From positions 448,001 through 512,000 of the forward strand of contig CBDHDF010000011.1 in NCBI GenBank assembly GCA_965261545.1: a DNA stretch of 64,000 nt. Reading direction: 5' to 3'. The position numbers were made by a program, and so were the translations under genes. This DNA comes from Bdellovibrionales bacterium. GTDB lineage: Bacteria > Bdellovibrionota > Bdellovibrionia > Bdellovibrionales > UBA1609. Of this stretch, positions 4,314-62,021 are shown one piece after another. Under the pieces are notes generated by a model. It ran no database searches. It saw only the letters and a list, made by a program, of their open reading frames with translations, and had not been told where the DNA came from. Numbering within the stretch: position 1 is the first letter of the stretch; each line of letters begins with the position of its first letter.

Positions 4314-4337
4314 CATTTTTTAGAAAGATGAGGAAAG

Positions 4338-14513: not shown

Positions 14514-14522
14514 TAAGAATTC

Positions 14523-14618
14523 CAGCAATTCCCGCCGAGATTTTTCCGACTTTGCTTTGAGGAAAAATCTGTGAGTGATAGAGGCTTATTTTAAGAATTT
14601 CTAGATTTTAGTCTTTAC
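14523..14618. mobile_element. solo IS/MITE end
   Basis: Starts with CAGCAATTCCCGCCGA and is a diverged reverse complement of 23135-23229. Confidence 0.75.
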
Positions 14619-14650
14619 CCCCGATGGTGGGTTTGATCCGCACATCGGGG
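14619..14650. terminator. hairpin between convergent genes
   Basis: CCCCGATG...CATCGGGG stem between hamB and the STAND gene stop. Confidence 0.5.
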
Positions 14651-14652
14651 AT

Positions 14653-17600
14653 TTACGGAGACTCTTCCTTTGCCATAACTTTAAGGGTATTTTGATACTG
14701 TGATTCAAGCGAGCAGTTCACAGCTTCGGAAGTTGCAAGAATAAGTTTGGCAATAAAACTAGAATCATTTTTTGGTATCATCAGGATTCCCTTAATGGGA
14801 GGCACTGTCTGCTGTGGCTCAGAAAGACGAAATAACTCTTCATCCACTATTCGTTCCCAGCCAGATCTTTGCCAAGCGGCAAGATAGGGTATGAGTAGAG
14901 ACTTAAAAATAGATTTGTTGACCCATTCAAAGAAGCGCAGTCCTGTCATCCAGAAATTACCCGGTGTTATGTGTTCATTTTGAAAAAATTTTTTGATGCG
15001 GTCCAAGATAATTTTCTCTTGTTGTGTGAGTGATTCCGATTCTTCATTCCAATAATCAAATATAAGCTTACCGGGAAGGAACTTTGTAAATTGATCAGTC
15101 AGAGCAGATTCAAGTTTCGTCATTGCATCTGGTTGTTTTGCTAGAACAGATCGAATGCCATAAGCCAGAATAGTATCTTGCGCTAACTGTTCAGCCACAG
15201 GATCAAACGGTACCTTTTTATCTAATGTTGGTATTTGCCCTCTTTTTGGTTTCGATGTGTTGAGAATTGCATGGGATCGATCGGTCTTCTTTAGCATAGA
15301 ATGATAAATAGTAGCTTCGACATACCTTTTTAAGTGGGCTGCAAACCTAATTGCATCAAGTTTGTTGATATCCATTTCCATCGTTCGTGTACGTAAGCCG
15401 GCTTCTAGTACTGGAATAGGGCCTTTAGTCAGTCGATGTTCAAGTGTAGCTGTGATCCCTACATCAAGGTTAGCTGTGACTTCCGTTTCCGCTAACATGT
15501 ACCAAACACAATCAATATGTCCAAGTGGAAGCTTTCCAATTTCAGGTGAAGGGTTGGGGTTGCTGCAAGTCCCAGCTTCCATTATGATTGGTTTCTCATG
15601 AATGAAATTATTTCTCTCAATACGGGGCTTCATCCATAGTACCGTATGTGGAATGACATGATGACAGTATGTTTGCAGTATCGTCTTTGGCTCAATCCCA
15701 TCTAAAGCTTCCATTGCCTCTGCCATGCATGTTAATGCTCGCTTTATCTCCCCTGTCTCAAAAGCAGCGACTCCTGAATCGGCACCAAGACCAATCGCCA
15801 TAATTCTCATATTGTCGGCTTGGGCTAATTTGGCAGCTTTCTGGGCATCGAGGAACCACTCTTCTGCTTGTGACCACTCATTACATTTTGCCGCACTGAT
15901 GGCTGCCTCACGTAATGTAAAAGCACGACTAACAGGACTATTGCTACCAATTTGATTCACGATGCTACGAAAGATTTTAAGAGCAGATTCATGTTCATCA
16001 TTGCGAAAGTAAACTTTGGCTAGGGCACAACTGAGAATTGGATCTTCTCCTTGAGTCTTTACTGCCTCTTCAAGAACGACCAAAGCACCTTCCTTATCGT
16101 TCTGATATTCATTCAACATAACCGCTTGAGCTACAGAACATTGAAGAGAGATGGGGCGGATACTCCAATTTCGTGTTTTCTCAGCCATTCGTTGATAGCT
16201 TATTGTAGCATCCGCTGCATTGAAAGTTTCTCGACGCTGTTCCGTAGACCAAGGACTATTGATGAATTCAAAATAATCGGAGTAATCTTCATTTCTTGGT
16301 TCTAGCAAGAGGGCTCGTTCGCTCTCATTCAGTTTATCAAGTTTGTTGATGATATGTTCAAGCCGACTTACGGATGTAGGGTCGGCACTTCCAGTATTAA
16401 ATAAAAGACTAAAGAAGTTTGATTTAACCACATCAGTAGTATCTTCAGTATTAGTCATAAAATTTTGAGAAAGGTCATCATTAGTCTCAACCATGTTTTT
16501 AAAACGAAGCAGTAGGTCAACCCAATCATCAAAATAGTTCGCAATACCTCTTGTCTTAAGTACAAGAGGTATTGTGATTGACTCAACATTGTATTTTTCC
16601 TTGTTTTCTGGGATGTTACTAATCTCATTAAAAAATGCTGCCAAAATATCGGAAATTTTTTTTCTATCACCCATTGTGGTTTCTAATCGAAATTGTGCAA
16701 GACGAAGCATTGCAGAAACTAAAGAATTTTCAGGGTAGATTGGTTTATCTGTTCGGCGACAACGAAAGATCAAACAATGTTCCGCAAGCATCTCAAGTTT
16801 GATAGGGTCAGCCTGTAATACACTGTGGACGATTGTGATTAGGCTTTGTATTGACTTGCCTGCCATCGCATGGATCATAATTGAGTCCAAATCAATTACA
16901 TTGACCTTACCATCTTTAAGCATCTGGACGGCAATGGTTTCATGGATTTGCTTTTGCTTACTAGATGACAACATCTTACGCCCAAAACTACTTGCAAGTG
17001 GTGAAACCGTGAATATATCTCTACCGACAGCATCGATCCATGACTCAAGCAGCTGATCCATGCATTCACCAGTTTGGTTGACTTGTGGAGGAATCTCGCC
17101 AATGGTTAATGCTAGTGATCGATTGAAATATCCGATTATAAGGCTAAGTCGATAGAGGAGATTTCGCCTTCCTTCGGGAAGCTCAGAAACCAAACTTCGG
17201 CGTGCTGTATCACGTGCTGCATCGGTGTCATCAGATGAAAAACCACGACTGATGATGTTTTCAATTTCTTTAGCTGGCCACCCCCGTTCCGCTATTCCCA
17301 CTACAAAAGCATGTGTAAGTTGAGGATGACCACCATTTCCTACAACATGAGCAAGGTTTCCCCATTTATCATGATCTCCTCTGTAATTACGGACGAGTTC
17401 ATGCACTTCTTTCTTTGAGAAGTATCGGCAATCGACAACACAGTTTTTATTGAGATTAAGATGATTGAGTGCCTTCAAAGAAGGCTTCCGATAACATGTT
17501 ATAAGTACTTGGCGATTACGCCGACGCAAGGCTTCAATGACACCCATTAATGACAAGACAACATTTGTGTCGTCAAGATGGTTCAGGTCTTCTAAAATCA

Positions 17601-18756
17601 GTATCGACGAAGGTAAACCCCCCAAACGGGCAAAAATCTGGTCGAGTCGATGATGAGTTTTGTTCGCCTTAGTGTTCCGCAAGTTCATTATGAAGGACTT
17701 GTCAAACTGTGCTTTGGCGACCGCTCGTGACACGGTGGTTTTACCAAGCCCACTGCCTCCTATTAGTATGCTCACACCAAAATTCTTGAGAGCGTCAGTT
17801 ACTGCAGATTCAACATCACCTCTGGTAATCATCTTCTGTGGAGAAGGAAGTGTGGAGCCATCAATAAAAAGGTTTGTTTCTATTGTAGAAATACTATTGC
17901 TGGGAGTTTGATTTTCAACTAACCTTTTCGTAGAATTTATGAAAAATCGATTCAAAGCCTCCAGATCATTTCGCTTCACTGAAACTCGTGTCGCATTATC
18001 GATTAATTCATAAAGGTCAGCCCGTGTAAGAACACGATCTCTGGGAGTATTAGCAATGCTCTTTTTTAGCACATGGTGAACTAAGCAATCGGAAAGCCGC
18101 CTTGATTCTTTAGATGGTATATCAAATTTGTCGCGACCCACAACAATCAGACGTGCTTCTAGTTCTTGGTGAAGTATTGAGAAATCTGGCTTACCACAAT
18201 CCCAGTGTATTCTCTCAATAAGGTCACGGCGAAGATTTTCATCATTACGATTCTTGGAGAAGGCTCTCACGGATTCTGAGAACTTGTCACTCTCCAATAT
18301 GTTACGCAGAGGTGTAATCTTTGCCTTCCCCGCTGCAACTTTTTTCCAATATTTTAAACCAGCTACCCCTTTTAGGCCAGTAATAGTCTTTTCTGTTCCT
18401 ATCTCTGATGTCGTAAAGAAATGGAGGTTAACTTGAAGGTCAGGATTTTGAGCGACAAGACCAACAAAATTGGCAACCGTATCGCGGATGTTTTTTCTAT
18501 TCAGTGTAACCGATCCAGAGCCTGCTGTGTCTTTAACCTGAACAGCGGAAAGTGCTTGATTTACTAGGACTGCATAGTCTTCAGCAACCTCCAGAAATAT
18601 CTGACCCTTTTCATCAATATCAACCCACGCAAGTGCTGCCGCTAGAATTTGATAGGCATAACCTCGTAAAGAATGGATAGCCTGATGTTTAGCCTCACCC
18701 TTTGGAACGATATCACCACTAATCGTGCCTGCATTAAAAAACTCATCAGCATTCAT
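14653..18756 (-). CDS. Cap4-like nuclease - STAND NTPase - TPR-like protein (Avs/NLR-like candidate)
   Basis: N-terminal GYAYQ...EVAED...VQVK. Walker A GGSGLGKT, Walker B LILEDL, GGHP(QL), long helical-repeat C-terminus. Confidence 0.7.
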   Translation of the reverse strand: MNADEFFNAGTISGDIVPKGEAKHQAIHSLRGYAYQILAAALAWVDIDEKGQIFLEVAEDYAVLVNQALSAVQVKDTAGSGSVTLNRKNIRDTVANFVGLVAQNPDLQVNLHFFTTSEIGTEKTITGLKGVAGLKYWKKVAAGKAKITPLRNILESDKFSESVRAFSKNRNDENLRRDLIERIHWDCGKPDFSILHQELEARLIVVGRDKFDIPSKESRRLSDCLVHHVLKKSIANTPRDRVLTRADLYELIDNATRVSVKRNDLEALNRFFINSTKRLVENQTPSNSISTIETNLFIDGSTLPSPQKMITRGDVESAVTDALKNFGVSILIGGSGLGKTTVSRAVAKAQFDKSFIMNLRNTKANKTHHRLDQIFARLGGLPSSILILEDLNHLDDTNVVLSLMGVIEALRRRNRQVLITCYRKPSLKALNHLNLNKNCVVDCRYFSKKEVHELVRNYRGDHDKWGNLAHVVGNGGHPQLTHAFVVGIAERGWPAKEIENIISRGFSSDDTDAARDTARRSLVSELPEGRRNLLYRLSLIIGYFNRSLALTIGEIPPQVNQTGECMDQLLESWIDAVGRDIFTVSPLASSFGRKMLSSSKQKQIHETIAVQMLKDGKVNVIDLDSIMIHAMAGKSIQSLITIVHSVLQADPIKLEMLAEHCLIFRCRRTDKPIYPENSLVSAMLRLAQFRLETTMGDRKKISDILAAFFNEISNIPENKEKYNVESITIPLVLKTRGIANYFDDWVDLLLRFKNMVETNDDLSQNFMTNTEDTTDVVKSNFFSLLFNTGSADPTSVSRLEHIINKLDKLNESERALLLEPRNEDYSDYFEFINSPWSTEQRRETFNAADATISYQRMAEKTRNWSIRPISLQCSVAQAVMLNEYQNDKEGALVVLEEAVKTQGEDPILSCALAKVYFRNDEHESALKIFRSIVNQIGSNSPVSRAFTLREAAISAAKCNEWSQAEEWFLDAQKAAKLAQADNMRIMAIGLGADSGVAAFETGEIKRALTCMAEAMEALDGIEPKTILQTYCHHVIPHTVLWMKPRIERNNFIHEKPIIMEAGTCSNPNPSPEIGKLPLGHIDCVWYMLAETEVTANLDVGITATLEHRLTKGPIPVLEAGLRTRTMEMDINKLDAIRFAAHLKRYVEATIYHSMLKKTDRSHAILNTSKPKRGQIPTLDKKVPFDPVAEQLAQDTILAYGIRSVLAKQPDAMTKLESALTDQFTKFLPGKLIFDYWNEESESLTQQEKIILDRIKKFFQNEHITPGNFWMTGLRFFEWVNKSIFKSLLIPYLAAWQRSGWERIVDEELFRLSEPQQTVPPIKGILMIPKNDSSFIAKLILATSEAVNCSLESQYQNTLKVMAKEESP

Positions 18757-19117
18757 TCTTAACGAATCTCCTCACTTTCGGGTTAGACTAAAGATACTCT
18801 CAATTTCTAATATTTTCTTAAAGAATATCTTTTTTTCTAACTTCTTTTCAATTTGATTTGGGTTAAAAAGAAGATCAACGAATATGATTGGATGAGATTT
18901 TTTCTCAAAGGAATCAATGTCTTTTTCTGGACATAAACCAAATTTAACTAATTTTTTAATGTCTCCCAAATCTCCTTTTTTTCGTGAGGGCTCTAACTGG
19001 AGTTCCCCAAAGAAGGTGGAGGGTTTTTTAAGCGAATTTTGCTTAATTTTGTAGTTGATCTCATGGGGTGGTTGCCCCCTGGTAACGAAAACTATAGGCC
19101 CCATGCATCATAAACCC

Positions 19118-19519
19118 TAAATCAAAACACAAACCCAAGCTCCAGGGGCATCTTTCTGATTACCAAAAGTCATCTTACCACCCCATGATTCGATGTCCAG
19201 CTTTGCTGTGTAAAGACCTAGGCCGTGGCCACCTTTTTTTCCGTAGGTGAAGCCTTGGGCACCTATGGGGGAGGGCTTGGTCGCTGAAGCCTGGGCCTTC
19301 GTCTGTGATGCATATGGAAATGGAGTTGTCTTGCTTTTTCATATGGATTTTAATCTCGCCTATGTGATTGTTGTGGTCTATCTCACCTATATGGTCTCTG
19401 TGGCCGTGATCTTTGTGGCTGCTATGGTTGTTGTGGCCACTATAACTGCTGTGGCTGTTATGATTTTTGGAGCTTGAGTGGGAGTCCGGATGGGAGGGGC
19501 TCAGGCTCATGGCTTCAAT
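19118..19519 (-). pseudogene. 3' fragment of a histidine kinase, homolog of 28838-29274
   Basis: IEAMSLSPS...ITDEGPGFSD is nearly identical to the element C kinase. 5'-truncated and frameshifted. Confidence 0.85.
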
Positions 19520-19691
19520 TTTAAAATTTCGTTCTGATAGGTCCCCATTATTACCACTCAGCTGCCAATAACGCATTGGTCAGAAATTATTGATGATGAG
19601 GTACTGGCAGATACTATCATCTTTCGAGTCGCTAAGCAGAGCATCTGTGAATTGGTTGTTGGAGTCAAGCCACGAAGAATTTGCTTCGTGG

Positions 19692-19859
19692 CTACCTCTT
19701 GAAAGGTCCATCTCCAATAGTGGCAGCAATACGGTTCATGAGTGTTTTTTGGAATAAATCATATTTGCTTTCTTCCCAAATTATATGATTGTACTGACGT
19801 GTATCAAAGTGAATTTTTTCTAATACATCCTTTCGACAAGTAAATATCACGGGCTTATG
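19692..19859 (-). pseudogene. C-terminal remnant of a nucleoside 2-deoxyribosyltransferase-like protein
   Basis: Manual translation KPVIFTCRKDVLEKIHFDTRQYNHIIWEE...RIAATIGDGPFKR*. N-terminus absent. Confidence 0.5.
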
Positions 19860-20450
19860 ATGAGGTCGGTCACAGACGGCTGAGTACTGCCAATAGCGTT
19901 GGGTTAAGCAATAGATCAGGACATTGAGATGTAAGTAAAAGGTAACCTACTGCTATTTGGTTGGGTATACAATCCTCCTGGAAGTTTTGGAAATAAGGAT
20001 TTGTAGCAATTATTTCCAAGATTGGACTCCCTTCTTTCAACACATGTGGATTGAGGCTTCTATACCAATTAAAAAATATGTTCATTGCCTTAGTGGTTTC
20101 TTCAAACACTAATTGGTAGGTCCTCATTGTAGTAAGGATACGGATTGCACACTCTTCCCTACTAAATTCACAAGTGTCATTATGGTCCTTATCAGCATGC
20201 TTGGGAATAGGAAGGATAAAAGGTCTTTTTTAGAAATTCGCAAGGCATACCAGTAAAAACTGCAGAGGCCAGCAAAGACTCCAATAGGATTTTTGGACTT
20301 AGTTGGTGGTTTGGAGTGGTGTTGGGCAAAGTTTGAGGAGAAGAATGGGGCCAGAAAAATATGTTGTTTTATGGTGTTGAGACGTACCTCTCCATGGACA
20401 TAGAGGGAGCAGATGATACAGCTCTATGCGTCATTTAGGGTAGTCAGAAG

Positions 20451-21951
20451 TTAAGAAAATGAATCGAAGCTCTCACTTTGTGGTGGGCCTCTAGGAGGCC
20501 ATAGGCTTGGAGGTTGTGAGGTGATGCCGAGATGAGTAAGAATTTTTTCAATGACCTGAGGGTCTTCAATGGAAGAAATGACTTTTATTTTTCCACCACA
20601 CTCATGGCAAGTTTCAATGTCTATATCAAAGACCCTTCTGAGCCTTTGAGCCCAGGTCATTCCTGAAGATTTTTTCTTGTTTGGCCTTGGCTCTGAATCT
20701 TCTAAATCTAAGGTTTCTTCCCTTGAGTTTTCATCGATGGAGGCTTCGATTTGGGGTTGAGGGACGATTGAGGATCGATATTTAAAGTTGGGTGCGAAAA
20801 CTCCGTGGAATCTTGTGAGATTCACTCGTGGTCGAGGGATGAGGGAGGCAAGACGGCTAAGGAAATCAAGGGGGTCCAGAACGATATGAGTGGTTCCATT
20901 GTCATAGGCGGTTTTGAGTTTATAGACGACTTGGCCCCTGGCATTTAATGAAAGCCTTTCTTCACTGAGACTGGGTCTTGAAATATACCGGCATACCCTC
21001 TCTCGCTTTTTTCTCTCATGGGCTCTACATGCGACTCCTCCATGGAGGCTAAAGCTAGAATATTTGGCAAGAAATTCACTGTTAAAATCTTTACCTCTTG
21101 GTGATACAGTGTGAAGAGTCAGTGCTTTTTTCCCTTTGTGGGGACCGAGAGCTATTCTGTAGGTGACTGATGATCCGTGGACTTGGTCCATACTGTCAGA
21201 GGCTTCCATAGCCAGATACTCTTGCCCTGTTTCATCCCTTAAGATGAGTCCCTTTTTTTCTAGGTGCTTGACCACTCTATGAGCTATGCTCACCAAGACG
21301 TGATCCATTTCACTTTGGGTGGGCGAGGTTACGGGATGAAAATGAGGTTTGCCTTCGGGGAATGTGTACACTCCATCCAAATACATCATATGGAAATGAA
21401 TATTGAGGTTGATGCTTCCTCCAAAGCGTTGAATGAAGGTGACAGAGCCTGTCTTGGCTCCTGATTTTTTGGTGAGGCCAGCTTTTGATCAGGTAGGTGG
21501 AAATGGCTCGATGAACGATGGCTAAGACCTCTCCCATGACCTTTGGATTTTTGGCAAAAAGGAATCTTATTTGAAAAGGAAAGCTAAGGACCCATTGTCG
21601 TAGGGGTTTTTGGGGAAAAACTTCATCAACTAAGTGGGCTGCACTTTCAGCCATTCTTCTTGAGCCGCAGCTTGGGCAGAAGCCTCGACGCTTGCAGCTA
21701 AAGGCCACAAGCCTTTCATGGTGGCAAGATTCGCACTGGGTTCTCAAGAAACCATGGGCAAGAATTCCACACTTGAGAAACTCGAATTCTTTTTTAACGA
21801 ACTGGGGAAGACCATTTTCATGCTCATTTTCTATGTGCCGGTAGAAAGTGAGTAGATTTTCTTGAACCAATTTGTAAAGAAGAGTCTTTTCAGGGCGGTG
21901 TCGTTGATATTTGGGAGCGTTGTTAAAGACATGGGGATCAACAAGGGCCAT
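20451..21951 (-). pseudogene. IS91-family transposase, frameshifted near 21485
   Basis: N-terminal half has SCKRRGFCPSCG and RQWVLSFP. The other frame has the HUH motif HFH, RYISRP and RFHGVFAP. Confidence 0.85.
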
Positions 21952-21966
21952 GGCCTTTGTTGGAAG

Positions 21967-21981
21967 GCAAGTTCAATGCCA
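21967..21981 (-). promoter_or_regulatory. sigma54 -24/-12 motif upstream of the IS91 transposase
   Basis: TGGCATTGAACTTGC on the minus strand (GG-N10-GC). Confidence 0.5.
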
Positions 21982-22043
21982 ACTGTGGGTGAGTTATCAA
22001 AAAAAACTTCTGGGAGAAGCCTATGAAGCTATGGAAGACACAG

Positions 22044-22089
22044 TCTGCATATCGGTTGGATTGGTGGACGCTCCCAACCGATATGCAGA
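22044..22089. other. attP-like B/C junction
   Basis: Perfect 16-bp inverted repeat TCTGCATATCGGTTGG / CCAACCGATATGCAGA around a 14-bp spacer containing TGGTGGA. Confidence 0.85.
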
Positions 22090-22678
22090 ATCCGACCTCA
22101 ATTCTGAACTATCAATAGAATCAACCACTTGTATAACTTCTCCCTCCATCTCGGCGACCATGCTCAAGGAAAAATATCTTAAAAATCAGCTCTCCATGAG
22201 GGCCATTTCCAAAGAGCTTGCGTGCTCAAGAACACATATCAGGGACCTACTTGTTAGGTATAATATCCCCCTCAGAAAATCATATGCACACCCCCGTTCC
22301 ATTTATGGCAAGAAGAAAATTGGCGGTAAACTGATTGACCACAAAATTGAGATAAAAACAGCAGCCACCATCAAAAGCATGTATGAAGACGAGGACCTTC
22401 GCCCCACAGCCATTGCAAGACTTCTCAATATCATGAAAGTGCCCACAAGAAAGCAGGGCAAAGGCTGGCACCACGACATGGTCATCACCATCCTCAAGAG
22501 AGAGGGGATTTACAAGCAAACTCGGACGGGAGGACAAACAAGAGGCACATTGAAAACAAAATCAAGAACGAAATCAAAAAACAAAGAGAAAATATCAACA
22601 ACAACTGGCTCCCCCCATAGTCTCGATGGGCATGGGGACCTAACAAAAGGAGAGCAAAATGAATACAGACATCGTTAA
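22061..22678 (+). CDS. left-end HTH/recombinase-domain ORF, in frame with the integrase across att
   Basis: Homolog of 9266-9874. Reads CISVGLV-DAPNRYAES continuously through the junction. Confidence 0.65.
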   Translation: MVDAPNRYAESDLNSELSIESTTCITSPSISATMLKEKYLKNQLSMRAISKELACSRTHIRDLLVRYNIPLRKSYAHPRSIYGKKKIGGKLIDHKIEIKTAATIKSMYEDEDLRPTAIARLLNIMKVPTRKQGKGWHHDMVITILKREGIYKQTRTGGQTRGTLKTKSRTKSKNKEKISTTTGSPHSLDGHGDLTKGEQNEYRHR

Positions 22679-22943: not shown

Positions 22944-23313
22944 TTAATTTTTCGTCAGCTCTGACTGGATGGAAAGAGCTTGTAATCGCTGATAGGATGG
23001 CTTTCAAGGTGATAAATATAATGCAATACAGCATTTTCTTGGGGGTCATTTTCCCTGTAAGTCCAGCAATTCCCGCCGAAAGATGGTTTTAGCTACTGTA
23101 GCCTGTTTTAACCTATTTGCTAAAAAATGATTTCGTAAAGACTAAAGTCCAGAAATTCCTAAAATAAGCCCCTACCATTCATAGATTTCTCCTCAAAGCA
23201 AAGCCGAAAAATCTCGGCGGGAATTGCTGCTGTAAGTCAGTCCTAATAGCCAATTACAAAATTTACTAGGAGCATTATTTCTTTCCATCCAGTCAGAGCT
23301 CACGAAAAATTAA
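22944..23313. mobile_element. outer MITE-like element
   Basis: 34-bp inverted repeats with 1 mismatch at 22944-22977 and 23280-23313. Confidence 0.6.
23064..23229. mobile_element. 166-bp MITE with 9-bp target duplication
   Basis: TIR CAGCAATTCCCGCCGA at both ends, flanked by CTGTAAGTC at 23055-23063 and 23230-23238. Confidence 0.85.
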
Positions 23314-28836: not shown

Positions 28837-30336
28837 TTAAATCACAACACAAACCCAAGCTCCATGGGCACCTTTCTGATTACCAAAAGTTATCTTACCA
28901 CCCCATGATTCAATGTCGAGTCTGGCTGTGTAAAGGCCTAGGCCATGGCCGCCTTTTTTTCCGTAGGTGAAGCCTTGAGTGCCTATGTGAGGGAGGGCTT
29001 TGTCGCTGAAACCTGGGCCTTCATCTGTGATGCATATGGAGATGGAGTTGTCTTGCTCTTTCATATGAATTTTAATCTCGCCTATTTGGTCTACCTCTCC
29101 TTCTTTTAGGCTTTTGTGACCTTTGTGGTGACTATGGTGGTTGGTGTGGTCGCTGTGGTCGTGGTCTTTGAGATTGATGTAGCTGTCATGGTCGCCATCG
29201 CTTCCGGAGCTTGATTGGGAGGGGAAGTTTGGACGAAGATCCGTACGGGAGGGACTCAAGCTCATAGCTTCAATAGCATTGTTTAAGATATTGGTGATGG
29301 CAGCCTTAAAATCTATGGGGTCCACTTCTTTTGTGTATGAAGAGGAGAAGGGGCAGGATTGAACTTCTGAGATGACAAGGTCCTGCTTTTGGGAGTTTTG
29401 AAATCGAATTTCAGAGGCGGCTTGCTCAACAAGATTGTAGAGGTTCACTTTGGCAAGTGGTTTGTTTTTCTTGTATTCAAGAGCCTTGGAAACAGATTCT
29501 TCAATCTCTTGTATGGAACCTCTTAGCATCTCTTCTTTTTCTTTGTCAAAGCTATTTCTTAGGAGAGGGAGGATAGTATTTATATTGCTTAGAGGTGTTT
29601 TAATATTGTGAAGCACCTTTTGGGAGATCTCATGGGAGACTTTTTCTCTTGTGCTTTCAGAAACCATCTTTTTCATCTCATCCAGAGCATGGGAAAGATT
29701 CTTGATGGATTTAAAGGATCCCTTAAACTCTTGAGGAACGTTTTTATCAATCTCTCCTTTTTTCAGGAGGCGATTGAGAAGTAAGATAAATCGGTCAAGG
29801 TATAGATTCATTCCAAGTAGTGTCAATACCGTGAGAGCGATGGCGAAGAGGAAGTTCAATGAGAAGACCATGAGAACCTGAGGTGTTCCTAGGGCTCCAA
29901 AGGAATCTAAGGCGAATGTGATCTGAACGAGAAGCCCTTTGTTGATAAAGATACAATAGGCATGTTGGCCACTACCTGATTTGTAATAGGAAGAGGGCAT
30001 GTTAGGATTGCAAATAAATTTTGTTCCTGTGTTGGAGGTGATTTCTTCTTTTGATATGAGGTCATAAAATAAGATGGATTTTATTTTGACGCCCTCGGAT
30101 AGCTCTTTACTAAGAAGCTGCTCCATGACTCTTCGGTAGTTGCCTTCGCCAACATCTCTGGACAAAAGGCTTAAGGCGAGTTCAGATTGAGAAAGAACTG
30201 ATTCTTTGAGCAAGTTCTTTCTTTGAATATGAATAATAAAAAGTGTAAAGGTCAGGTTCAAAATAATAGCTATAAGAATAATCAGAGCAATAAGTTTTTT
30301 CTTACTTAAAGAACTAGGCCACGGGATGAACTTCAC
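28837..30336 (-). CDS. membrane sensor histidine kinase
   Basis: Two TM helices around a periplasmic domain. H-box LHNIKTPL, N-box NILNNAIEA, DEGPGF, GHGLGL. Confidence 0.9.
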   Translation of the reverse strand: MKFIPWPSSLSKKKLIALIILIAIILNLTFTLFIIHIQRKNLLKESVLSQSELALSLLSRDVGEGNYRRVMEQLLSKELSEGVKIKSILFYDLISKEEITSNTGTKFICNPNMPSSYYKSGSGQHAYCIFINKGLLVQITFALDSFGALGTPQVLMVFSLNFLFAIALTVLTLLGMNLYLDRFILLLNRLLKKGEIDKNVPQEFKGSFKSIKNLSHALDEMKKMVSESTREKVSHEISQKVLHNIKTPLSNINTILPLLRNSFDKEKEEMLRGSIQEIEESVSKALEYKKNKPLAKVNLYNLVEQAASEIRFQNSQKQDLVISEVQSCPFSSSYTKEVDPIDFKAAITNILNNAIEAMSLSPSRTDLRPNFPSQSSSGSDGDHDSYINLKDHDHSDHTNHHSHHKGHKSLKEGEVDQIGEIKIHMKEQDNSISICITDEGPGFSDKALPHIGTQGFTYGKKGGHGLGLYTARLDIESWGGKITFGNQKGAHGAWVCVVI

Positions 30337-40595: not shown

Positions 40596-41864
40596 TCACT
40601 CTTGCTCCCCATCGATAATGGTCCAGCCCTTTCCCTTTAAGCTTGTACGAGCTGATGCAGCACTGGAGTTATATTTTAATGTGCCCACATTAATTGTATT
40701 ATGTCTTGTTGTAGGTGTGCTTTTGTTGAATTGTATTAGAAATTTTGAATAATTTTCAATGGATAAAGATGAATTTCTAAGGAAACCACTTTGGTTGGAA
40801 ATGTTCGAAAAGTTCCACTTACTTACATCTGGGTTTGCTTGGGTTGCATTGTCAAACATATATTCCATATTTGTGACCTTAGAAATATCCCACTTACTTA
40901 CATCTGGGTTCGCTTGGGTTGCATAATAAAACATATCCTGCATATGTATGACATTGGAAGTATCCCACTCACTTGTATCTGGGTTTGCTTGGGTTGCATC
41001 AAAAAACATAGCTCTCATATCTGTGACCTTGGAAGTATTTCCTCCAAAGACTGTTTTGAGCAAAGAATTGTCTTCAAAAGCATAAGACAAATCTTTCCAT
41101 CCTACATTTCCAAGATCGTTCACCTGAAGTAAACTATCTTTTGAAGAATCCACGTTATTTTGGAATCCCTCACAAAGTCCCATAATTGTGACTGTATACA
41201 CGTTATCGATAAAGTAGGTATGTACCTTATCGGGATCATCAAAAGACGTCACTTCACTGACACCACTGTTATCTCCCCAATCCACAATAAAATCATATTT
41301 TAAATTTGGTTTAAGGGGAAGGGTGAATTTATCTTTACTATCGATAGACCATACTGTTACAAAATGATGGATATCATTGACGACAGCAACACTTTGTGTG
41401 TCCTCTCCATGTGTCACTGTGACCATGATTTCGTCTGATGTTGCTTGGCTCACATCGAAAGCTCCTGTAAAGACATTGGAACTACAAGGCACTTCTACAG
41501 AAGTGATTTGAGGTTCTCCAACAATCACCGACACGTTTCCATTCATATTTGAATCACAGATTCCTTGTATCGTGTAGGACCTTGAATTGGATGAATGAAG
41601 GGAGGCCAATGGTTCATTGATACTTAGTGTGGGGCGCTCACTCGGTATCGGGTTGGAGTTCGACGTGGGAGCCGTGTTTGATGTAGGAGTGGTGCTCGAC
41701 GTGGGAGCCGTGTTCGACGTAGGAGTGGTGCTCGAAGTAGGAGAGGTAACAATACTTTCTTGATTTTGCTTGTCGCTATCGTTCTTCTTGCAACCGATAA
41801 GGATTGTCAAAGATAAGGTGATTAAAATTTCATGGATTGTCTTCATTTTTTTGTTGTTTCTCAT
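40596..41864 (-). CDS. DUF285/BspA-like repeat surface lipoprotein
   Basis: Lipobox-like LIGC, Thr/Ser/Pro linker, FIVDWGD domain, 25-aa repeats WDxSxVTxMxxMF. Confidence 0.85.
   Translation of the reverse strand: MRNNKKMKTIHEILITLSLTILIGCKKNDSDKQNQESIVTSPTSSTTPTSNTAPTSSTTPTSNTAPTSNSNPIPSERPTLSINEPLASLHSSNSRSYTIQGICDSNMNGNVSVIVGEPQITSVEVPCSSNVFTGAFDVSQATSDEIMVTVTHGEDTQSVAVVNDIHHFVTVWSIDSKDKFTLPLKPNLKYDFIVDWGDNSGVSEVTSFDDPDKVHTYFIDNVYTVTIMGLCEGFQNNVDSSKDSLLQVNDLGNVGWKDLSYAFEDNSLLKTVFGGNTSKVTDMRAMFFDATQANPDTSEWDTSNVIHMQDMFYYATQANPDVSKWDISKVTNMEYMFDNATQANPDVSKWNFSNISNQSGFLRNSSLSIENYSKFLIQFNKSTPTTRHNTINVGTLKYNSSAASARTSLKGKGWTIIDGEQE
40815..41040 (-). repeat. 75-bp coding tandem repeats (DUF285-like units)
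   Basis: ATCTGGGTTYGCTTGGGTTGCAT recurs three times with period 75. Confidence 0.85.
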
Positions 41865-54836: not shown

Positions 54837-55064
54837 GTGGACGAGATTGATTTAGAAATAAAAAAACTTGAACTTGGCGAAGCCATTGCCGTTTTTAGGA
54901 GAAAAAAAGGGCTTTCTTTGACAAGGTTAGCCTATGAGGCTGGTGTTTCTAAGGGAAATTTATCAGATATTGAAAAAGGCAAAAAAGACCCTAGACTTTC
55001 CTCTTTACTACTCATCGCAAACGGGCTGGATATTTCAGTGTCAGTGCTATTCAAGTCAATTTAA
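54837..55064 (+). CDS. Xre/C-protein-like HTH regulator
   Basis: RRKKGLSLTRLAYEAGVSKGNLSDIEKGKKDP. Confidence 0.85.
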   Translation: MDEIDLEIKKLELGEAIAVFRRKKGLSLTRLAYEAGVSKGNLSDIEKGKKDPRLSSLLLIANGLDISVSVLFKSI

Positions 55065-55166
55065 TTGACACGCTGAGCCTAGATTCAGCTCGGAATAACT
55101 ATTTTGTAGATAAAATAGTCTTTCATACCTACATGAATTCTTCAATAAGCCATTTATTATGTCTAT

Positions 55167-55472
55167 ATGGCGAACCCTAAAAAATTGTCTGCCACCAAAG
55201 GAACCGCTTCACGCCAACGGAAGAATTCATTTGCAAGCAATGAGCTGCGAGTTCTTAAAAGTTTTGGTAGGCAAGTCAACTATGACATATCGCATGATAT
55301 TGACTCCAAGCGTCCAGTAGAGCAGCTTTCTTTTGACGCAGATATATCGCGAGCTGCTATCTATGAAATAACTGCGGGCAGAGGTAACCCCAAGTTAATC
55401 ACTATGTATCGTTTGGCAAGAAGCCTTGGCTATAAAAAGCTAAGTGATTTACTCATATCTTCTGGACTCTAG
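55167..55472 (+). CDS. Xre-like HTH protein
   Basis: EQLSFDADISRAAIYEITAGRGNPKL. Palindrome ACTATTTT-N6-AAAATAGT upstream at 55098-55119. Confidence 0.7.
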   Translation: MANPKKLSATKGTASRQRKNSFASNELRVLKSFGRQVNYDISHDIDSKRPVEQLSFDADISRAAIYEITAGRGNPKLITMYRLARSLGYKKLSDLLISSGL

Positions 55473-55534
55473 TCGATCCGCTCACAAGATAAGATGTGGT
55501 TTCGTAGTTTTATTCCAAGAACAATCTTATTATT

Positions 55535-55771
55535 TCAATAAATAATGGTCATGTAGTTTATGATCTTGCCATTTTCTTCCGTTTCTTTGGGCATACAGTA
55601 TAGATCGTATAATTTTATTGATTTTTTCTTGAGTGCTTCATTTTTCTCTACGAAGATGAGCCGCAATAGACTGTCTTCAAAAGTATTAGATATTATTCTC
55701 TTGTGATGAGATTTTCCACCTATAACGAGCATTTCTAACTCTTTTTTTCTAAGATGGTGCTTGATATGCAT
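55535..55771 (-). CDS. hypothetical protein
   Basis: AGGAGG RBS, 78 aa. Confidence 0.5.
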   Translation of the reverse strand: MHIKHHLRKKELEMLVIGGKSHHKRIISNTFEDSLLRLIFVEKNEALKKKSIKLYDLYCMPKETEENGKIINYMTIIY

Positions 55772-55798
55772 TCTAACCTCCTATGAGTGAAGAATTAA

Positions 55799-56080
55799 TT
55801 ATTTAGAGCCTTCTTTAATATTACCAGATGGCTCTTTAGTCATAGATGAAGCATCGCAACAGGTTCGAAGTATTTCTTCTTGAATAGATAGGTCTTCGGC
55901 AAGAAGCTTTATAAGCTTACCTACCCCAAAGAATTCGTCTGGAGACATACAGCTATGTTGTGATTGAAACTCAAAAAGAGAGCCTAGCCCATTGAATCCA
56001 CTTTGAATCTCAAAGAGTCGGTGACAAATATTCTTAAGTTTATCTTTTGTTAAATGTTCAAATTTTTCCATGGATTCCAT
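55799..56080 (-). CDS. hypothetical protein
   Basis: 93-aa helical ORF co-oriented with 55535-55771. Confidence 0.5.
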   Translation of the reverse strand: MESMEKFEHLTKDKLKNICHRLFEIQSGFNGLGSLFEFQSQHSCMSPDEFFGVGKLIKLLAEDLSIQEEILRTCCDASSMTKEPSGNIKEGSK

Positions 56081-56426
56081 CCGTTATTTTTGAGTGTGGT
56101 TCTTCTGAATGTGGTTGCGGCCATGGCCTACACCCATTTTGGCCGTTTTGAAAAGGGCCAAACTTTATTTTTTTGCCCATCGTCAAAAAAAATCCTCAGA
56201 ATGGGGGTTTTTGAGCCTTCATGCCCCATTAAGTTCATAAGATAGGGGATTTCCCAATCTTCAAGCCCCCATGAACCCAACCCAGTTTTCAATCTATCAC
56301 GGTGCTCTAGCCAACGCAATTTATGAACCCACCTACGGGACCTAACTTAACCCACACCACACCTATGAAGGAGGTATTTCATGATTCATTCAATATTTTT
56401 TTCAATGTCTTTTTTGCAAGAGGCTT

Positions 56427-57512
56427 ATGCTTAACAAAAATATATTAGGGAAAGATTTCTTCAGTGAAGATCATTGCTGGCAATACGAAATGAGAAAAAA
56501 GAACCTCGCCAAGGACCTAAAAATGGTCGGTCTTACTTATAATGAAATGTCTAAACTTCGAGTCTCTCACTTTGATTTTTTCCATGTTTCAAAAAGTAAT
56601 AAAGAAATGTGTAAAAAAGTGAAAGCCTTTATTCTTCACCATGAATGGCTTGGCAAAATGCCCCATCGTCCTACCCATCGCTTTATAGCGACCTACAAAG
56701 GACAATTGGCTGGTGCAATTGTGATGGCCACGCCCAATGCATTTTCTCATCTTTTGGGTAAAGAAAATCGTGACAAAGAGAAGCTTATCAGTCGGGGAGC
56801 TTGTATTTCTTGGAGCCCCAAGAATCTGGCAAGTTCCCTTGTAATGTTTTCTGTCCGCTGGATGGTGAAAAACACTTCCTATCGTTATTTCTCAGCCTAT
56901 TCAGACACTGAAGCCAGAGAGATGGGAACTATCTACCAAGCTTCTAATTTTATTTATCTAGGACAAAATTCAGGGGCACGTTTTGAATATTATGACCCTC
57001 ATGACCCCGAAAAGGGTTGGTTCAGTGACCGGAGGTTTAGAAAAATAAGTAGTTATAAGAAATATGCCCTTGCTCTTGGCATTCATTGGAAGAGTGACTG
57101 GAACAATAGGGATCATATCCATTGGGAGCGAATTCCCGAGGCTCTTGTGACTCAACTTAGAGAAGCCTCAAGAAAATATCAAGCTTGTTGCCAACGTCGT
57201 AGGCTTCCAAGAAAGCATAAGTATGTCTACATCTTAGGAAAGAGCAAAAGGGAGACCAAGAAACTCCTAAAAATCTTTAAGGACAGAAATTCAGAGAAGC
57301 AAAATTTGGTTTATCCCAAATTTCGAGGACCACAAATGAATCAAGGGTTACAAGTGAGCCGAGAGTTACAAATGAATTGGCCTGTTCATATGAAACTCAA
57401 GTTTATGCGGCCGTTCATTTCACAAGACGATGATTCAGAAAATTCAAAAACTTCAGAAACTATGGATGGTGTTATTGACAAAATGGCCGACTCCATGGTG
57501 GCCATAAAGTAA
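56427..57512 (+). CDS. Mom-like (GNAT-fold) DNA modification protein
   Basis: FILHHEWLG, ISRG, KNLAS, AYSD...GTIYQASNFIYLG and RKHKYVY resemble the phage Mu Mom family. Confidence 0.65.
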   Translation: MLNKNILGKDFFSEDHCWQYEMRKKNLAKDLKMVGLTYNEMSKLRVSHFDFFHVSKSNKEMCKKVKAFILHHEWLGKMPHRPTHRFIATYKGQLAGAIVMATPNAFSHLLGKENRDKEKLISRGACISWSPKNLASSLVMFSVRWMVKNTSYRYFSAYSDTEAREMGTIYQASNFIYLGQNSGARFEYYDPHDPEKGWFSDRRFRKISSYKKYALALGIHWKSDWNNRDHIHWERIPEALVTQLREASRKYQACCQRRRLPRKHKYVYILGKSKRETKKLLKIFKDRNSEKQNLVYPKFRGPQMNQGLQVSRELQMNWPVHMKLKFMRPFISQDDDSENSKTSETMDGVIDKMADSMVAIK

Positions 57513-57519
57513 GGCATTT

Positions 57520-58017
57520 GTGGTTGTTCCAAAAAGGAAACCCATAAGCTTCGATTCATCGGGAGGACATTGTCATGCATGGGAAGAGCATTGTCATTCG
57601 CCAGAAAAACGTAGGAACTCGCTGGGAAAATACGACAATTCACCAGAAAAATATGACAACTTATCGAAAAATCATGGCAATTTGTCGGGGAGAAATCAGA
57701 GTTCGGGAAGACATTGCAGAAAGTGCCAAAAATTTAAAGATTGGGAGGGTTTTCACCGAAAACCCTTGGGCCACCAAGGGCGTGACAGCCAGTGCAAGGA
57801 GTGTCGAAAAAAGGCACAAGTCAGGCGAAGAAAAGAAAGAAGGAAAGAAATGCAGAAAATCAAAAAGCAAGAGTATAGGGAAAGGCATATTCACATCAAT
57901 GGTAATGACCTCACTGTGGAAAGTATCATTGTGGGCGAACCAAGCCCGGATCTTCTTGTGGATGTTGCCATGATGATTGCCCACGCCTATCTTTATCGGG
58001 GAGTTCCACATGACTAA
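57520..58017 (+). CDS. CxxC...CxxC zinc-finger protein upstream of the integrase
   Basis: CRKC...F.RK...DSQCKEC, similar to 7096-7416. Confidence 0.6.
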   Translation: MVVPKRKPISFDSSGGHCHAWEEHCHSPEKRRNSLGKYDNSPEKYDNLSKNHGNLSGRNQSSGRHCRKCQKFKDWEGFHRKPLGHQGRDSQCKECRKKAQVRRRKERRKEMQKIKKQEYRERHIHINGNDLTVESIIVGEPSPDLLVDVAMMIAHAYLYRGVPHD

Positions 58018-58025
58018 ACGAGGAG

Positions 58026-59954
58026 TTGCACATGGCTAGAAAAAGAATGAGTCATAGGGAAATGAAAAAACTTGTTTTTAAAGTTGTTGATGACTGTAAA
58101 AGACTTGCTGACAATCATGTTAAAAACTGGAAGCCCACCAATAAGAGTTGGTCCACCATTGAGGGAGCCGTGTATCTGAGACTTTCCGACAATGCCCAAG
58201 TGGCTGTGGAAAGGGGTTCTCTGGAACAACAAATTCACATTGCCGTCTCAGAAGCCCAATATCGTTCGGAACAGGAAAAGATCAACTACAAGATCAGCGA
58301 GTTTTATATTGAACCCGGAGTCACAGGAACCCATGACAATCGGCCCGAGTTTATAAGGTTGCAGCAGAATATTCTCCTTAAGACCCATCAATTTATTATC
58401 TTCAAGGAAATTTCCCGACTGGTGCGAGACCTGGAAATCTGGAAGCGATTTTTCAAGCTCTGCCAAAACCATGATTGTGAAATTTGTCTGCGTGGCCTTC
58501 CATTTAATCCCAATGATCCGGCTTCCATTTTGCAGTTAGATCAACTGGCGGCCTATGCTGAGTTTGAATCACGCACCACTTCCAAGCGCATCAGAGAAAG
58601 CAATCATTCCGCCCTTATCACTTCTGGGAAATTCAATGGAGATTACCCTTTGCTTGGTTTTGACCTTGTGACCAATGAACACGGGGAGGGAACGGGGGTT
58701 TACAAACCCAACCCCAAGGAACTCAAGCAAGTGGAGTGGGTCATGACTTCTTTTCTTCAGGTGGATAAGTATGGAACCCTTCTCAATATATGCAAAGAAC
58801 AAGGTATTCAAAACAAGCACGGAAAACCCTTGAGTCGAAATAGCCTCAAGGCTCTGCTTACCAACCCTCGCTATGTGGGCAAGTGGTATCGCAACCCCCA
58901 TAGTAAGGATAAAAGGCAAGACAAGCTTATGCCCTACGACCGTTATATGGAGGTGAGTTTTGATTATGGCTGTGTCATCAATGAGAGGCTTTGGAGCCAA
59001 GTGCAAGAGAAGGTGCGCAGCATGGACCAGTCACGGGCCAAGGGAGTGAAAAGGTGCTACCCTCTTTCGGGGCTTCTTTTTTTAGAGGATGGTACCCATT
59101 TTATAGGGACTGGTGCCTGGGGGCGTCAATACAAGGCCACTTATTATTACAATGTCTCCCACAAGCTTCGAATACCCACAAAGATTTTTGAGAAGGAAGC
59201 TGAGAAAATGTTATGTCATGTCAAAAATCACTCCAAGGAGTTCCAAGGGGCTCTTGTGAAGCTTACCCAAAAAAAGGATAGCACTTTGGAGAGGATCAAG
59301 GATAAGATGCAAAACATTGAAGAGCAGTTTAAGAAACTTGCCACCCAAAGGGAGCAGCTCGATAAGCGGCTGAACTTCCTCTTGGCGGATGATAGCCATG
59401 GTCGTGGAGGCGGTGGAAGTGAAGGCGATAGTGGTAGTGGTGGCAGTGACGGCTGTAGTAATAGTGGCAGCAGTGGCAATGATGGTAGTCACGGCAATGG
59501 AGACCCTAGCAGTGATGGCCGTGGTGGTAGTGATAGTAGTGATCGCACTACTGGCAATGATGAAAATATGGAAATGGCTCTCGCCTTCAAAGGCGAATAC
59601 AAAAAACAATTTGTGAAGCTAAGAGACCAAGAGCAAGAACTCAACCATCAGAGAGAGAAGATGCGACGGATCCAAGCTCAATTCACAACACCTCTCCCCC
59701 AAAAAGAAGAAGAAAGGCAGAAGTTGGTGAATGACGCTCTCCAGCATGTCCAGAAAAAGGACCTTGTCGCCCTGAGAGCCATTTATCGAAAATTTTTTGA
59801 GAAGATCATCGTAAAACCCTTGGATAGCTCCAGGGTTCAACTGCAATTTGTCTTCAAAGACTCGTCCTCGACCCTTTTTCGCAGGGTTGAGGACGCATTC
59901 TGCATATCGGTTGGAATGGTGGAGGCAACAGGGATCGAACCTGCGACCTCTTGA
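58026..59954 (+). CDS. large serine recombinase (integrase) of element C
   Basis: YLRLS, E.GVTG...RPEF, ISRLVRD, AEFES, LLGF, NPRYVG, YPLSGLL and a coiled coil. Ends antisense within the tRNA (VEATGIEPATS). Confidence 0.92.
   Translation: MHMARKRMSHREMKKLVFKVVDDCKRLADNHVKNWKPTNKSWSTIEGAVYLRLSDNAQVAVERGSLEQQIHIAVSEAQYRSEQEKINYKISEFYIEPGVTGTHDNRPEFIRLQQNILLKTHQFIIFKEISRLVRDLEIWKRFFKLCQNHDCEICLRGLPFNPNDPASILQLDQLAAYAEFESRTTSKRIRESNHSALITSGKFNGDYPLLGFDLVTNEHGEGTGVYKPNPKELKQVEWVMTSFLQVDKYGTLLNICKEQGIQNKHGKPLSRNSLKALLTNPRYVGKWYRNPHSKDKRQDKLMPYDRYMEVSFDYGCVINERLWSQVQEKVRSMDQSRAKGVKRCYPLSGLLFLEDGTHFIGTGAWGRQYKATYYYNVSHKLRIPTKIFEKEAEKMLCHVKNHSKEFQGALVKLTQKKDSTLERIKDKMQNIEEQFKKLATQREQLDKRLNFLLADDSHGRGGGGSEGDSGSGGSDGCSNSGSSGNDGSHGNGDPSSDGRGGSDSSDRTTGNDENMEMALAFKGEYKKQFVKLRDQEQELNHQREKMRRIQAQFTTPLPQKEEERQKLVNDALQHVQKKDLVALRAIYRKFFEKIIVKPLDSSRVQLQFVFKDSSSTLFRRVEDAFCISVGMVEATGIEPATS
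59897..59923. other. right att site of element C
   Basis: ATTCTGCATATCGGTTGG arm plus the TGGTGGA core overlapping the tRNA 3' end. Confidence 0.85.
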
Positions 59955-59992
59955 ATGCAAATCAAGTGCTCTACCAACTGAGCTATGCCCCC
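59917..59992 (-). tRNA. tRNA-Ala(TGC)
   Basis: 76 nt, GGGGGCATAGCTCAGTTGGTAGAGC...TTTGCAT...GTTCGATCC...CTCCACCA. G3:U70 pair and encoded CCA. Confidence 0.97.
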
Positions 59993-60714
59993 ATGCAAAC
60001 CGCAACAAAACGGATAGTTCAATAGCTTAGATGTTTCTGCGTAGAAAATCGCAAGGCTAAGCAAAGGCTTACTTATTTCATGTTCGTGGTGATAACAAGC
60101 GATTGCGCATAGTGTAATTTCTTTTTGAAGAGTTTTTGGCTTTTTTTTTTGACTTCCTTTCTCTCCATGAGTTTAAGTTAATTTCTAAGTAATTATTCAG
60201 GGGGTGTTATTTTAAGTGTTAAGACTCTCTTAATTTTTGATCGGACGCCTTTTGGATACACCTACTTGCACTCAAGTCGAAAATAGAAGGGTTTGACTGT
60301 TTAAGCGTACCCCTCTGAATAATTAAATTTCTAAAAGTATAAATTAAGAACTCGACTTGGTTTATTACTCAAAAAGAAAAAGAATAGGAACGAAATTTAT
60401 ACCTTTAAAAATTTATTGACCTTTCAGATAATCAATGTTAGGACTTTTATTGGTTGTGACTTTTGGATGAAAGTAAAAAGAGAGCAAAAATAAAGAACAT
60501 AAAGAATAAAGAGGCTGGGGGGAAGTATTTTTGTAACAGCTCACATCGTTATTGGTTTCATAGGAAAACCTATGGTTTGCGGTCTTACACTTTTCCTTTT
60601 GTTAGAGGGCAGGGGTGGTGGTTACAGGTTTTTCTTAGGCCTCGAACGAATACTTGACTTAATGCTTTCAGTTAATACTCACTATATTTCAATTAAAACT
60701 CATCACATACGAAG

Positions 60715-60751
60715 TGAGATCTATGGAGCGGCTTGTGCTCCATAGATCTCA
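60715..60751. repeat. 15-bp perfect-stem hairpin
   Basis: TGAGATCTATGGAGC-N7-GCTCCATAGATCTCA. Confidence 0.7.
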
Positions 60752-60860
60752 TAGGTAAGCTTAGGGGGCACCAGCTTTATTCTATATTCTCTTACTAAAA
60801 GAGAGAAACGGGTAAAACGGGTAGGTAAGCTACAGCGTAATAAATTAAATAGAGGGATGT

Positions 60861-62021
60861 ATGGGGCTTCTGAGACCTTTTTTTCGAAATTTTTCTGTTT
60901 TAATCTTTGCTTGGGCGTTAATGACCACGGGCTCTTTAGCGTCAGACGAAAATATCACCAGCTTGCCACCTTCAACCGGCTCTCTTAATGTTATCAACTA
61001 TAATTTATGGCATGATATTGGTCAGGGTATTTTCAAGCGAAAGGGGCTTGATCCACCCAACCATAAAAAACAACGCTTTCAAACTCAGCTTAAAGAGTTG
61101 GAAGAGGCTCGTCCTGATATTTTATTTTTACAAGAACTGAATCCAATTTCATCTTTCTCGAAAAAAATAGCTCAAAAGTTGGGCATGTTTGGTATTTATC
61201 ATGTTACAAACTGTGGAATCTCTGTTTTAGGCTTAGGAATTCCCACTAATTTAAGTATGGGAATTGCTATTCTTGTACGTCCGCCTTTCCAAATTAAAAA
61301 AATCAAGGGATTCAAGCTTAGTGGTCCCTTCGGGTTTTGTCATAATCCTCTTTTTACATTTCAATATGATGAATTTAGGTATGGACTTTTTGCTATGGCA
61401 AGTCATCCAGACTATGGTTCCATGTTGCTAGTGAATACTCACTTTCACCATGGCGTAAAGTGGAGCCCTCAAGTTCGTGAAAAACTTAACACATGGGAAA
61501 GCAATGAAGTTCTTACGAGTGCACAAAGAGTAGAGATCGAAGAAACCATTGATGACTCCAACCTAAGAAGAATGCAGGAGTTACAAAATCTTTTCAATAA
61601 AGTTGAACAACTTCAGAAAGATAATCCGCTTCCTCTTATTTTAGCCGGAGATTTCAATTTCACTGTCCATTCTCTTATTTATAAAGAACTTATTGAAACC
61701 TATCAGCTTCGAAACACTATGTCTACCTACTTTCCCCGTCCGTACACATGGGATCCCTTAAAAAATAAAAAAAATCACCAATATACATCGCTTTTTGGTT
61801 TTTCGGTATCTACCTTTGACATCAAGGAAGTGCAAGATTTCTTTAGGAAATATAATGGGCGCCCAAGACGAATTGATTATATTTTTCTTAGTTCTCAATT
61901 TGAAGAAGTTATCTCCAGTGCTCTTTTTGGCCATAAACCAAGTCTTGATGGCATTATAGGATCCGATCATTTTGAAGTTATTTCAAATCTACATCTAAAA
62001 AAAATAAGTAGAAGTGTATAA
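60861..62021 (+). CDS. secreted endonuclease/exonuclease/phosphatase family protein
   Basis: Signal peptide, NYNL, DILFLQE, NTH, AGDFN, RIDYIF, SDH. Confidence 0.88.
   Translation: MGLLRPFFRNFSVLIFAWALMTTGSLASDENITSLPPSTGSLNVINYNLWHDIGQGIFKRKGLDPPNHKKQRFQTQLKELEEARPDILFLQELNPISSFSKKIAQKLGMFGIYHVTNCGISVLGLGIPTNLSMGIAILVRPPFQIKKIKGFKLSGPFGFCHNPLFTFQYDEFRYGLFAMASHPDYGSMLLVNTHFHHGVKWSPQVREKLNTWESNEVLTSAQRVEIEETIDDSNLRRMQELQNLFNKVEQLQKDNPLPLILAGDFNFTVHSLIYKELIETYQLRNTMSTYFPRPYTWDPLKNKKNHQYTSLFGFSVSTFDIKEVQDFFRKYNGRPRRIDYIFLSSQFEEVISSALFGHKPSLDGIIGSDHFEVISNLHLKKISRSV

Follow-up and report, generated by a model that had tools for sequence, protein, structure and literature searches.

The large serine integrase of an ICE-like element in a Bdellovibrionales genome (Int) and a module at the opposite end of the same element (Ext) are, as their sequences indicate, two halves of one gene with attP inside it. 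On the excised circle, the open reading frame would be continuous, at about 833 aa. By the same layout, integration at a tRNA or tmRNA 3' end would replace Ext by a short antisense-tRNA tail and leave Ext stranded at the far end of the element, usually without a start codon. We hold it to be very probable that the fused Int-Ext isoform is real. The distinct circular and integrated isoforms proposed in the first-pass annotation are strongly implied by the fixity of the frame and by a dyad centred on the core. Coordinates refer to the window, that is, the whole 64,000-nt stretch of DNA analysed.

Attachment sites and tandem elements

Three copies of the core TGGTGGA, at 9267, 22062 and 59917, bound two tandem elements, B and C. 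Element C (22062–59923, 37.9 kb) is ICE-like according to Pfam matches: an integrase, a VirB4-like ATPase, a coupling protein and a relaxase, the genes by which an ICE is recognized, lie between its att sites, and by gene content it is predicted to be conjugative. Its genes include VirB4/TraC-like (37985), TrbI (47923), an FtsK-type coupling protein (49026), Replic_Relax (50566) and Mom (56427). A minus-strand DUF285 repeat protein (40596–41864) with internal repeats of 75 and 18 nt is located amid the conjugation genes.

The right core of element C (attR, 59917–59923, plus strand; predicted crossover around 59921|59922) is the 3' end of tRNA-Ala(TGC) (59917–59992, minus strand), the integration target and the sole tRNA-Ala(TGC) found in the genome. 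The left core (22062–22068, plus strand) is at the junction with element B. In the computed attP, the P arm within the Int coding tail (59882–59914, plus strand) is an inverted repeat of the P' arm (22074–22106, plus strand), which also provides the first Ext codons. The arms are 88% complementary, 30 of 38 positions are symmetric, and the dyad centre falls between core bases 5 and 6. Because this centre is inside TGGTGGA, the crossover is expected within the core, where it would leave the frame unshifted, in agreement with the junction that the first-pass annotation had assumed.

Element B (9267–22068) is an integrase-less island with HamA/HamB, a STAND-type NTPase and an IS91-like transposase at its right end. 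Its left core and Ext copy occupy 9267–9874 (plus strand) and show 76% aa identity to the C copy with the frame open. The B/C junction is indeed in frame, as reported earlier, but it retains only about 38 nt of att arm, since element B lost its integrase beside the IS91-like element; for this reason the junction taken alone is weak evidence. A 255-aa gene at 21911–22678 was considered and rejected, its first 50 codons being IS91-like antisense sequence and att arm.

Element A has a large serine recombinase of its own, distant from Int (7413–9323, plus strand), which also reads through its att core, in another phase, phase 0, and is out of frame with the Ext of element B. The Ext profile gave no Ext partner for it in the genome; some other 3' module may belong to it. 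Contig C2 (43169–48955) holds a near-identical but broken copy of this recombinase, accompanied by a conjugation region of similar kind. A 90% direct repeat (19118–19366 and 28838–29088) and an 87% inverted repeat (14542–14618 and 23135–23211) are common to elements B and C, which suggests related cargo or exchange. Defence genes cluster in the tandem array (471–6984 and 10241–18756): ZorD-like, PDC-S06, HamA/HamB (Hachiman) and a large STAND-type NTPase with an N-terminus weakly similar to LmuA/Cap4.

Contigs of public assemblies from three runs of one sample were compared over 55000–61000. In one run, a contig with a near-identical element departs from the reference directly after 59923, which fits a live junction at this point. 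The 30 letters beyond this branch are not the left end of C, and a 17-base piece of them is absent from the genome. Two runs branch at 58897, where a 15-base piece of the loose end, perhaps an IS end, matches contig C7 near 399800. The two branches are variants, with an interrupted integrase in one case and other DNA at the att site in the other. No attP contig or joint for element C was found in the contigs of the three runs over the range compared.

The integrase and its extension

Int (58026–59954, plus strand; ORF call and Pfam) is the integrated, short form and has 642 aa if counted from TTG at 58026. ATG at 58032, preceded by GAGGAG, is the likelier start and gives 640 aa. Pfam places Resolvase (PF00239) at residues 48–192 (E 5.9e-14) and the Recombinase domain (PF07508) at 230–331 (E 1.2e-10). 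The translation holds a Y-x-R-x-S motif, which we take to be the catalytic serine motif. The domain order is catalytic, recombinase, a cysteine-less zinc-ribbon-like domain with a coiled coil, and a Gly/Ser-rich insert. Int has neither a PF13408 match nor zinc cysteines; the corresponding region aligns with a relative (L053) that does match PF13408. According to the alignment, the short form seems to retain the full canonical architecture of a large serine integrase. Its low-complexity insert of about 57 aa, rich in Gly, Ser and Asp (59400–59560, in the coiled-coil region), is missing from all 25 other aligned integrases. The first-pass annotation had placed the att core inside the integrase ORF, and this holds: the core at 59917–59923 is within Int, which enters antisense tRNA-Ala(TGC) by 12 codons and takes its final residues from there.

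Joining the core at 59917 to that at 22062 gives a computed ORF of 835 aa (832 with the 9267 end), or 833 aa from ATG 58032, while the other two frames of this attP reach a stop within 18 codons. In Int as in the two left-end ORFs, the core starts on the second base of a codon, and both left-end copies keep the frame open, as claimed before. The 835-aa fused ORF of the first-pass annotation thus stands, but the size of its extension needs correction: excision would swap the last 10 Int residues for 203 residues from the left end (22062–22678), and only about 150 of these are conserved, the final 50 or so forming a basic low-complexity tail that is not.

Ext of element C (22064–22678, plus strand) consists of a linker of about 30 aa, an HTH of three helices (about 22154–22258, plus strand), a partial second recombinase domain with a hairpin and three helices (about 22310–22501, plus strand) and the basic tail. 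Its structure model (pLDDT 85.9) and the match of the second domain to the SPbeta integrase recombinase domain (E 2.5e-8) bear out the HTH and second recombinase-type domain recognized earlier. Foldseek with the Ext model returned nothing at E ≤ 0.001, the top rows being serine integrases. AlphaFold run without an alignment on a natural 747-aa fusion gave a pLDDT of 36.5, too low for use.

Conservation of the reading frame in the family

Relatives of Int sit at the 3' ends of tRNA-Ala, Val, His, Asp, Asn, Pro, Met, Leu, Gln, Lys and Arg and of tmRNA. Among those adjoining a tRNA or tmRNA end, 37 of 39 read through the core, with tails of 27–81 aa where measured; 14 Ints were unscored in this count, the RNA gene having been missed for some of them. 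For the frame test, elements with both ends on one contig were used, Ext being the nearest one upstream on the same strand. The phases of Int and Ext were identical in 18 of 18 elements (nine in phase 1, six in phase 2 and three in phase 0). The same was found in all 11 scorable elements of a held-out set of 13 whose Ext was absent from the profile (G346:C19 and G396:C216 were not scorable). Two elements, G375:C20a and G208:C1, were scored by eye as phase 2 on both sides. Taken together, all 29 scorable tRNA/tmRNA-targeting elements, in three phases, have Int and Ext in a common frame at the core, although these elements are kin and the 29 matches are not 29 independent events. The frame conservation among homologs, which the first-pass annotation had put forward as a test, is thereby confirmed.

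The phase differences might be the mere register of the tRNA end, in which case the agreement would be a single 1-in-3 event. This was rejected, as the dyad centre is the same across phases. It is fixed relative to the tRNA end (directly in 15 of 18 elements and in G104 once an unencoded CCA is taken into account; the dyads of G208 and G337 are too weak), whereas the distance from core to HTH is 113, 114 or 115 nt according to phase. Because one is fixed while the other varies, the phase changes are true shifts that were matched on the Int side. The phases are scattered over the Int tree with at least five changes, sister elements of differing phase occur at 100/100 support, and the tree of Ext largely agrees with that of Int. 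G219 has a pair of sister elements in unlike phases: both match the frame of their own Ext, and the junction joining the two is out of frame. If the two sides were uncoupled, the ancestral state and about five matched changes would together have a probability of roughly (1/3)^6, calculated by hand.

The linker from the core to the HTH tyrosine contains a stop in 0 of 55 Ext copies, as against 46 of 54 for the upstream sequence in the same frame; seven Ext matches without the anchor pattern and three without a recognizable core were left out of this count. In 11 disjoint pairs, linker differences number 51, 47 and 86 at codon positions 1, 2 and 3 (chi-square about 15, 2 df, by hand). Being stop-free and having its differences concentrated at the third position, the linker evolves as coding sequence. 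The two window copies taken alone differ in the linker by 4 synonymous and 7 non-synonymous changes and give little purifying signal.

Natural single ORFs in which Ext follows Int were found at five genome loci (657–793 open codons). Among the 150 database matches listed, P0081, P0083 and P0094 are Int-Ext fusions and P0074 and P0061 are fragments; most top rows of that search were HTH-repeat proteins. The fusion at G219 is a tandem junction, and that at G231:C4 shows no clear core. In L204 (G231:C4) and L149:7078, an Ext-like module forms part of a long ORF in which no att core can be seen; these may represent the ancestral state, before the gene was split. Longer homologs were sought in two word-indexed searches, a weak method for such a question, which gave no fusion and one unrelated HTH-repeat protein. 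Some Ext copies are decayed, the HTH tyrosine being replaced by a stop in L155/L156 and L181, and the intact-looking Int of L058 stops 37 nt short of its core.

Ext was found with a single-protein query in 56 of 401 sampled genomes of the phylum, and with the profile in 172 of 401, although some of the weaker matches may be no more than ordinary recombinase domains. Most named Ext relatives are from Bdellovibrionota. Plasmid and phage collections and IMG/VR gave no match to Ext, and single-protein scans were likewise empty. Further family remnants in G000 (C2:6982–7446, C11:272619–273065 and C11:892889–894697) comprise an Ext in which a toxin-antitoxin-like pair has taken the place of the 5' part, a divergent orphan Ext and a tmRNA-type Int with its tail cut by an IS. 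The same genome has near-identical, insertion-sequence-like serine recombinases of 544–575 aa at eight loci (such as C11:547546–549180) and a second multi-copy family of this kind, of 687 aa.

Boxes in the extension DNA

A 9-bp box with the consensus TTTCCTCCA recurs within Ext coding DNA at three places relative to the HTH tyrosine codon, 81/80 nt and 15 nt upstream and 47 nt downstream of it. Element C has three such direct boxes (22093–22101, 22159–22167 and 22221–22229, plus strand) at +27, +93 and +155 from the dyad centre. A box in the P arm (59887–59895, minus strand) is 27 bp from the centre and inverted relative to those of Ext. Two boxes form a hairpin directly 3' of the tRNA (59863–59895, minus strand; z = -3.2), a possible element-supplied terminator.

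Codon usage within the boxes is strongly skewed. CTC accounts for 46 of 50 Leu codons in boxes versus 108 of 512 (21%) elsewhere, TTC for 26 of 26 versus 32 of 104 (31%), and TCC for 31 of 34 versus 75 of 407 (18%). The boxes are thus fixed at the DNA level, since one synonymous codon dominates at three positions. The first box is translated in differing frames across subfamilies. A matrix trained on the middle Ext box alone recovered the inverted box on the Int-side arm, 25–29 bp out, in 14 of 18 elements; it also gave direct boxes at +27–30 in 8 of 18, with 15 hits at +90–99 and 15 at +150–159. In the tmRNA/tRNA-Pro clade (G303, G146, G104), the boxes are weak or missing. The ZD motif of the LI integrase is placed at 16–24 bp in the available text of PMC3783163, and the boxes therefore lie beyond the canonical serine-integrase footprint. 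Int's own zinc-ribbon-like domain could be a box binder.

Possible functions of the two forms

The circle would make the long Int. Its Ext HTH and second recombinase domain would bind the boxes at about -27/+27–30, +93–96 and +155–158 and build an extended attP complex that engages the tRNA-end attB, a site of little symmetry. Integration would then trim Ext and leave an enzyme that looks complete and is weaker or biased towards excision, and this trimming would stabilize the integrated state as an Mx8-like switch. We put the chances as even that the long form is the efficient integrator by means of the boxes and that integration leaves such a weaker or excision-biased enzyme. The short form may be fully active, since it seems to keep the full canonical architecture. 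The end of the integrated int mRNA is complementary to an abundant tRNA, which could lower expression further. A bolder version is that this phylum-wide family steers direction without a separate RDF, the circle form only integrating through the boxes and the chromosomal form only excising, as a two-domain module is gained or lost by recombination; we regard it as unlikely.

Ext might instead fold back on the zinc-ribbon and coiled-coil region of Int as a covalent directionality factor, so that the long form only integrates and the short form excises without an RDF. A predicted complex of Int 325–628 with Ext scored 0.60 against 0.01 for the best control, with at least 76% contact agreement among runs and partner pLDDT of at least 66. 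Among solved complexes, 116 of 157 pass the mark, as do 2 of 215 mismatches; passes with a score no higher than 0.60 comprise just 18 of the 157 but both mismatches, which makes the support weak. The pass may reflect memory of the contacts between recombinase and zinc domains in solved integrases, and it gives no interface. Such folding back is rather unlikely.

It is improbable that the short form is essentially dead and that excision depends on a long form provided by an incoming circle or by an in-frame tandem fusion. Tandem arrays and Ext-only left ends, such as that of element B, are common, chromosomal fusion ORFs exist, and the idea was raised for DsiB in the available text of PMC3146451. 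However, many elements are single and intact at both ends and would on this view have no means of excising, and three tandem junctions (window 9267, G219:C2 near 29457 and G059:C1) join unlike phases out of frame.

Autoregulation alone, with Ext binding boxes in its own coding DNA to limit int on the circle and catalysis equal in both forms, is quite improbable. Ext does have an HTH and the boxes sit within the 3' part of the gene, but they are tied to the crossover (symmetric at ±27–30) and not to a promoter; promoter signals near int numbered 3 against 3.6 expected, the promoter and terminator scan being at chance level.

That Ext is a separate small gene, an RDF or regulator with its own start, and that the common frame is a by-product of att geometry, is very improbable: many stand-alone calls of about 150 aa exist in databases, phase-1 cores contain an in-frame GTG and both window copies have a start at codon 33 (ATG 22160 in C, GTG 9365 in B), but these internal starts, to which the first-pass annotation had rightly drawn attention, are without a Shine-Dalgarno-like sequence, ATG, GTG and TTG are all missing from 19 of 55 Ext copies and no start position is common to the copies, while the linker upstream of any start is constrained as coding sequence, a frame change on one side is accompanied by one on the other, and natural Int-Ext fusions are found.

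The preferred reading, a long integrating form trimmed upon integration, would if true be a new way of controlling serine-integrase direction. It would turn the older suggestion made for DsiB and the rumA ICEs into a defined isoform pair, domain and set of candidate binding sites. Integrase mining based on chromosomes would clone the short form with an attP of about 50 bp and could score such enzymes as dead. One pipeline, as described in the available text of PMC12884075, rejects serine integrases above 800 aa and would drop the 833-aa form.

Comparison with known systems

An att site inside the integrase gene is already published for Mx8, SSV1, the rumA ICEs and DsiB, serine integrases included; the first-pass annotation did not mention these precedents. 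Our literature search, which had most subscription papers outside its coverage, returned no HTH and recombinase-domain module completed across attP, nor an integrase family of this kind. The available text of the 2014 Islander paper (PMC4383910) notes that no serine integrases had been known to occur at tRNA genes, and 'tRNA' is absent from the main text of PMC10083194; the present family inserts at conserved ends of tRNA and tmRNA genes, from which these enzymes were once thought excluded.

DsiB, the serine recombinase of Dehalococcoides ssrA islands, is among the nearest known systems. Its gene always overlaps att at the 3' end, and its authors considered that full function may need the circle or the 3' fragment of a neighbouring island (available text of PMC3146451). 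Both systems, going by that text, have a serine integrase overlapping att, an RNA-gene target, tandem arrays and a Mom homolog nearby. DsiB inserts in the tmRNA T-loop and acts with a DsiA partner, whereas here the acceptor end of many tRNAs and tmRNA is used. No Pfam match to DsiA, RecF-like or ParB genes was found beside int among the scanned ORFs of at least 100 aa. The description of DsiB, as far as available, includes no 3' module, in contrast to the defined HTH and recombinase-domain module here.

In Mx8 and Mx9 (IntP/IntR), attP is in int and integration swaps a 112-aa C-terminus for 13 aa (available portions of PMC6070905 and PMC4701971); the integrated short form of Mx8 is less active, and the system works as a switch (PMC4701971, in part). 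The present system likewise has attP inside int and passes from a long C-terminus to a short one, with 203 versus 10 residues. Mx8 is a phage tyrosine recombinase and the enzyme here belongs to the serine family, which makes it Mx8-like but not a member. A second DNA-binding domain is not described for Mx8 in those portions, whereas Ext would supply such domains here.

For the serine integrases of streptococcal rumA ICEs, the accessible part of PMC4701971 gives attR inside the gene and C-termini that differ between the excised and integrated states, with a functional difference proposed. Unlike the present family, they have a protein-gene target, their 3' ends are exchanged with a change of frame, and no conserved appended domain is reported there. 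The SSV-type archaeal int (SSV1) is interrupted by its own att upon integration, according to the available text of PMC5861418; it is of the tyrosine family and the gene is broken, whereas a canonical full-length integrase stays here. As in LI/A118, Bxb1 and SPbeta, Int has catalytic and recombinase domains and a dyad attP with a predicted central crossover, and it may have a counterpart of their zinc-ribbon domain and coiled coil. It differs from them in having no zinc cysteines, extra domains, boxes past the 16–24 bp ZD window and an attP that is apparently about 190 bp long.
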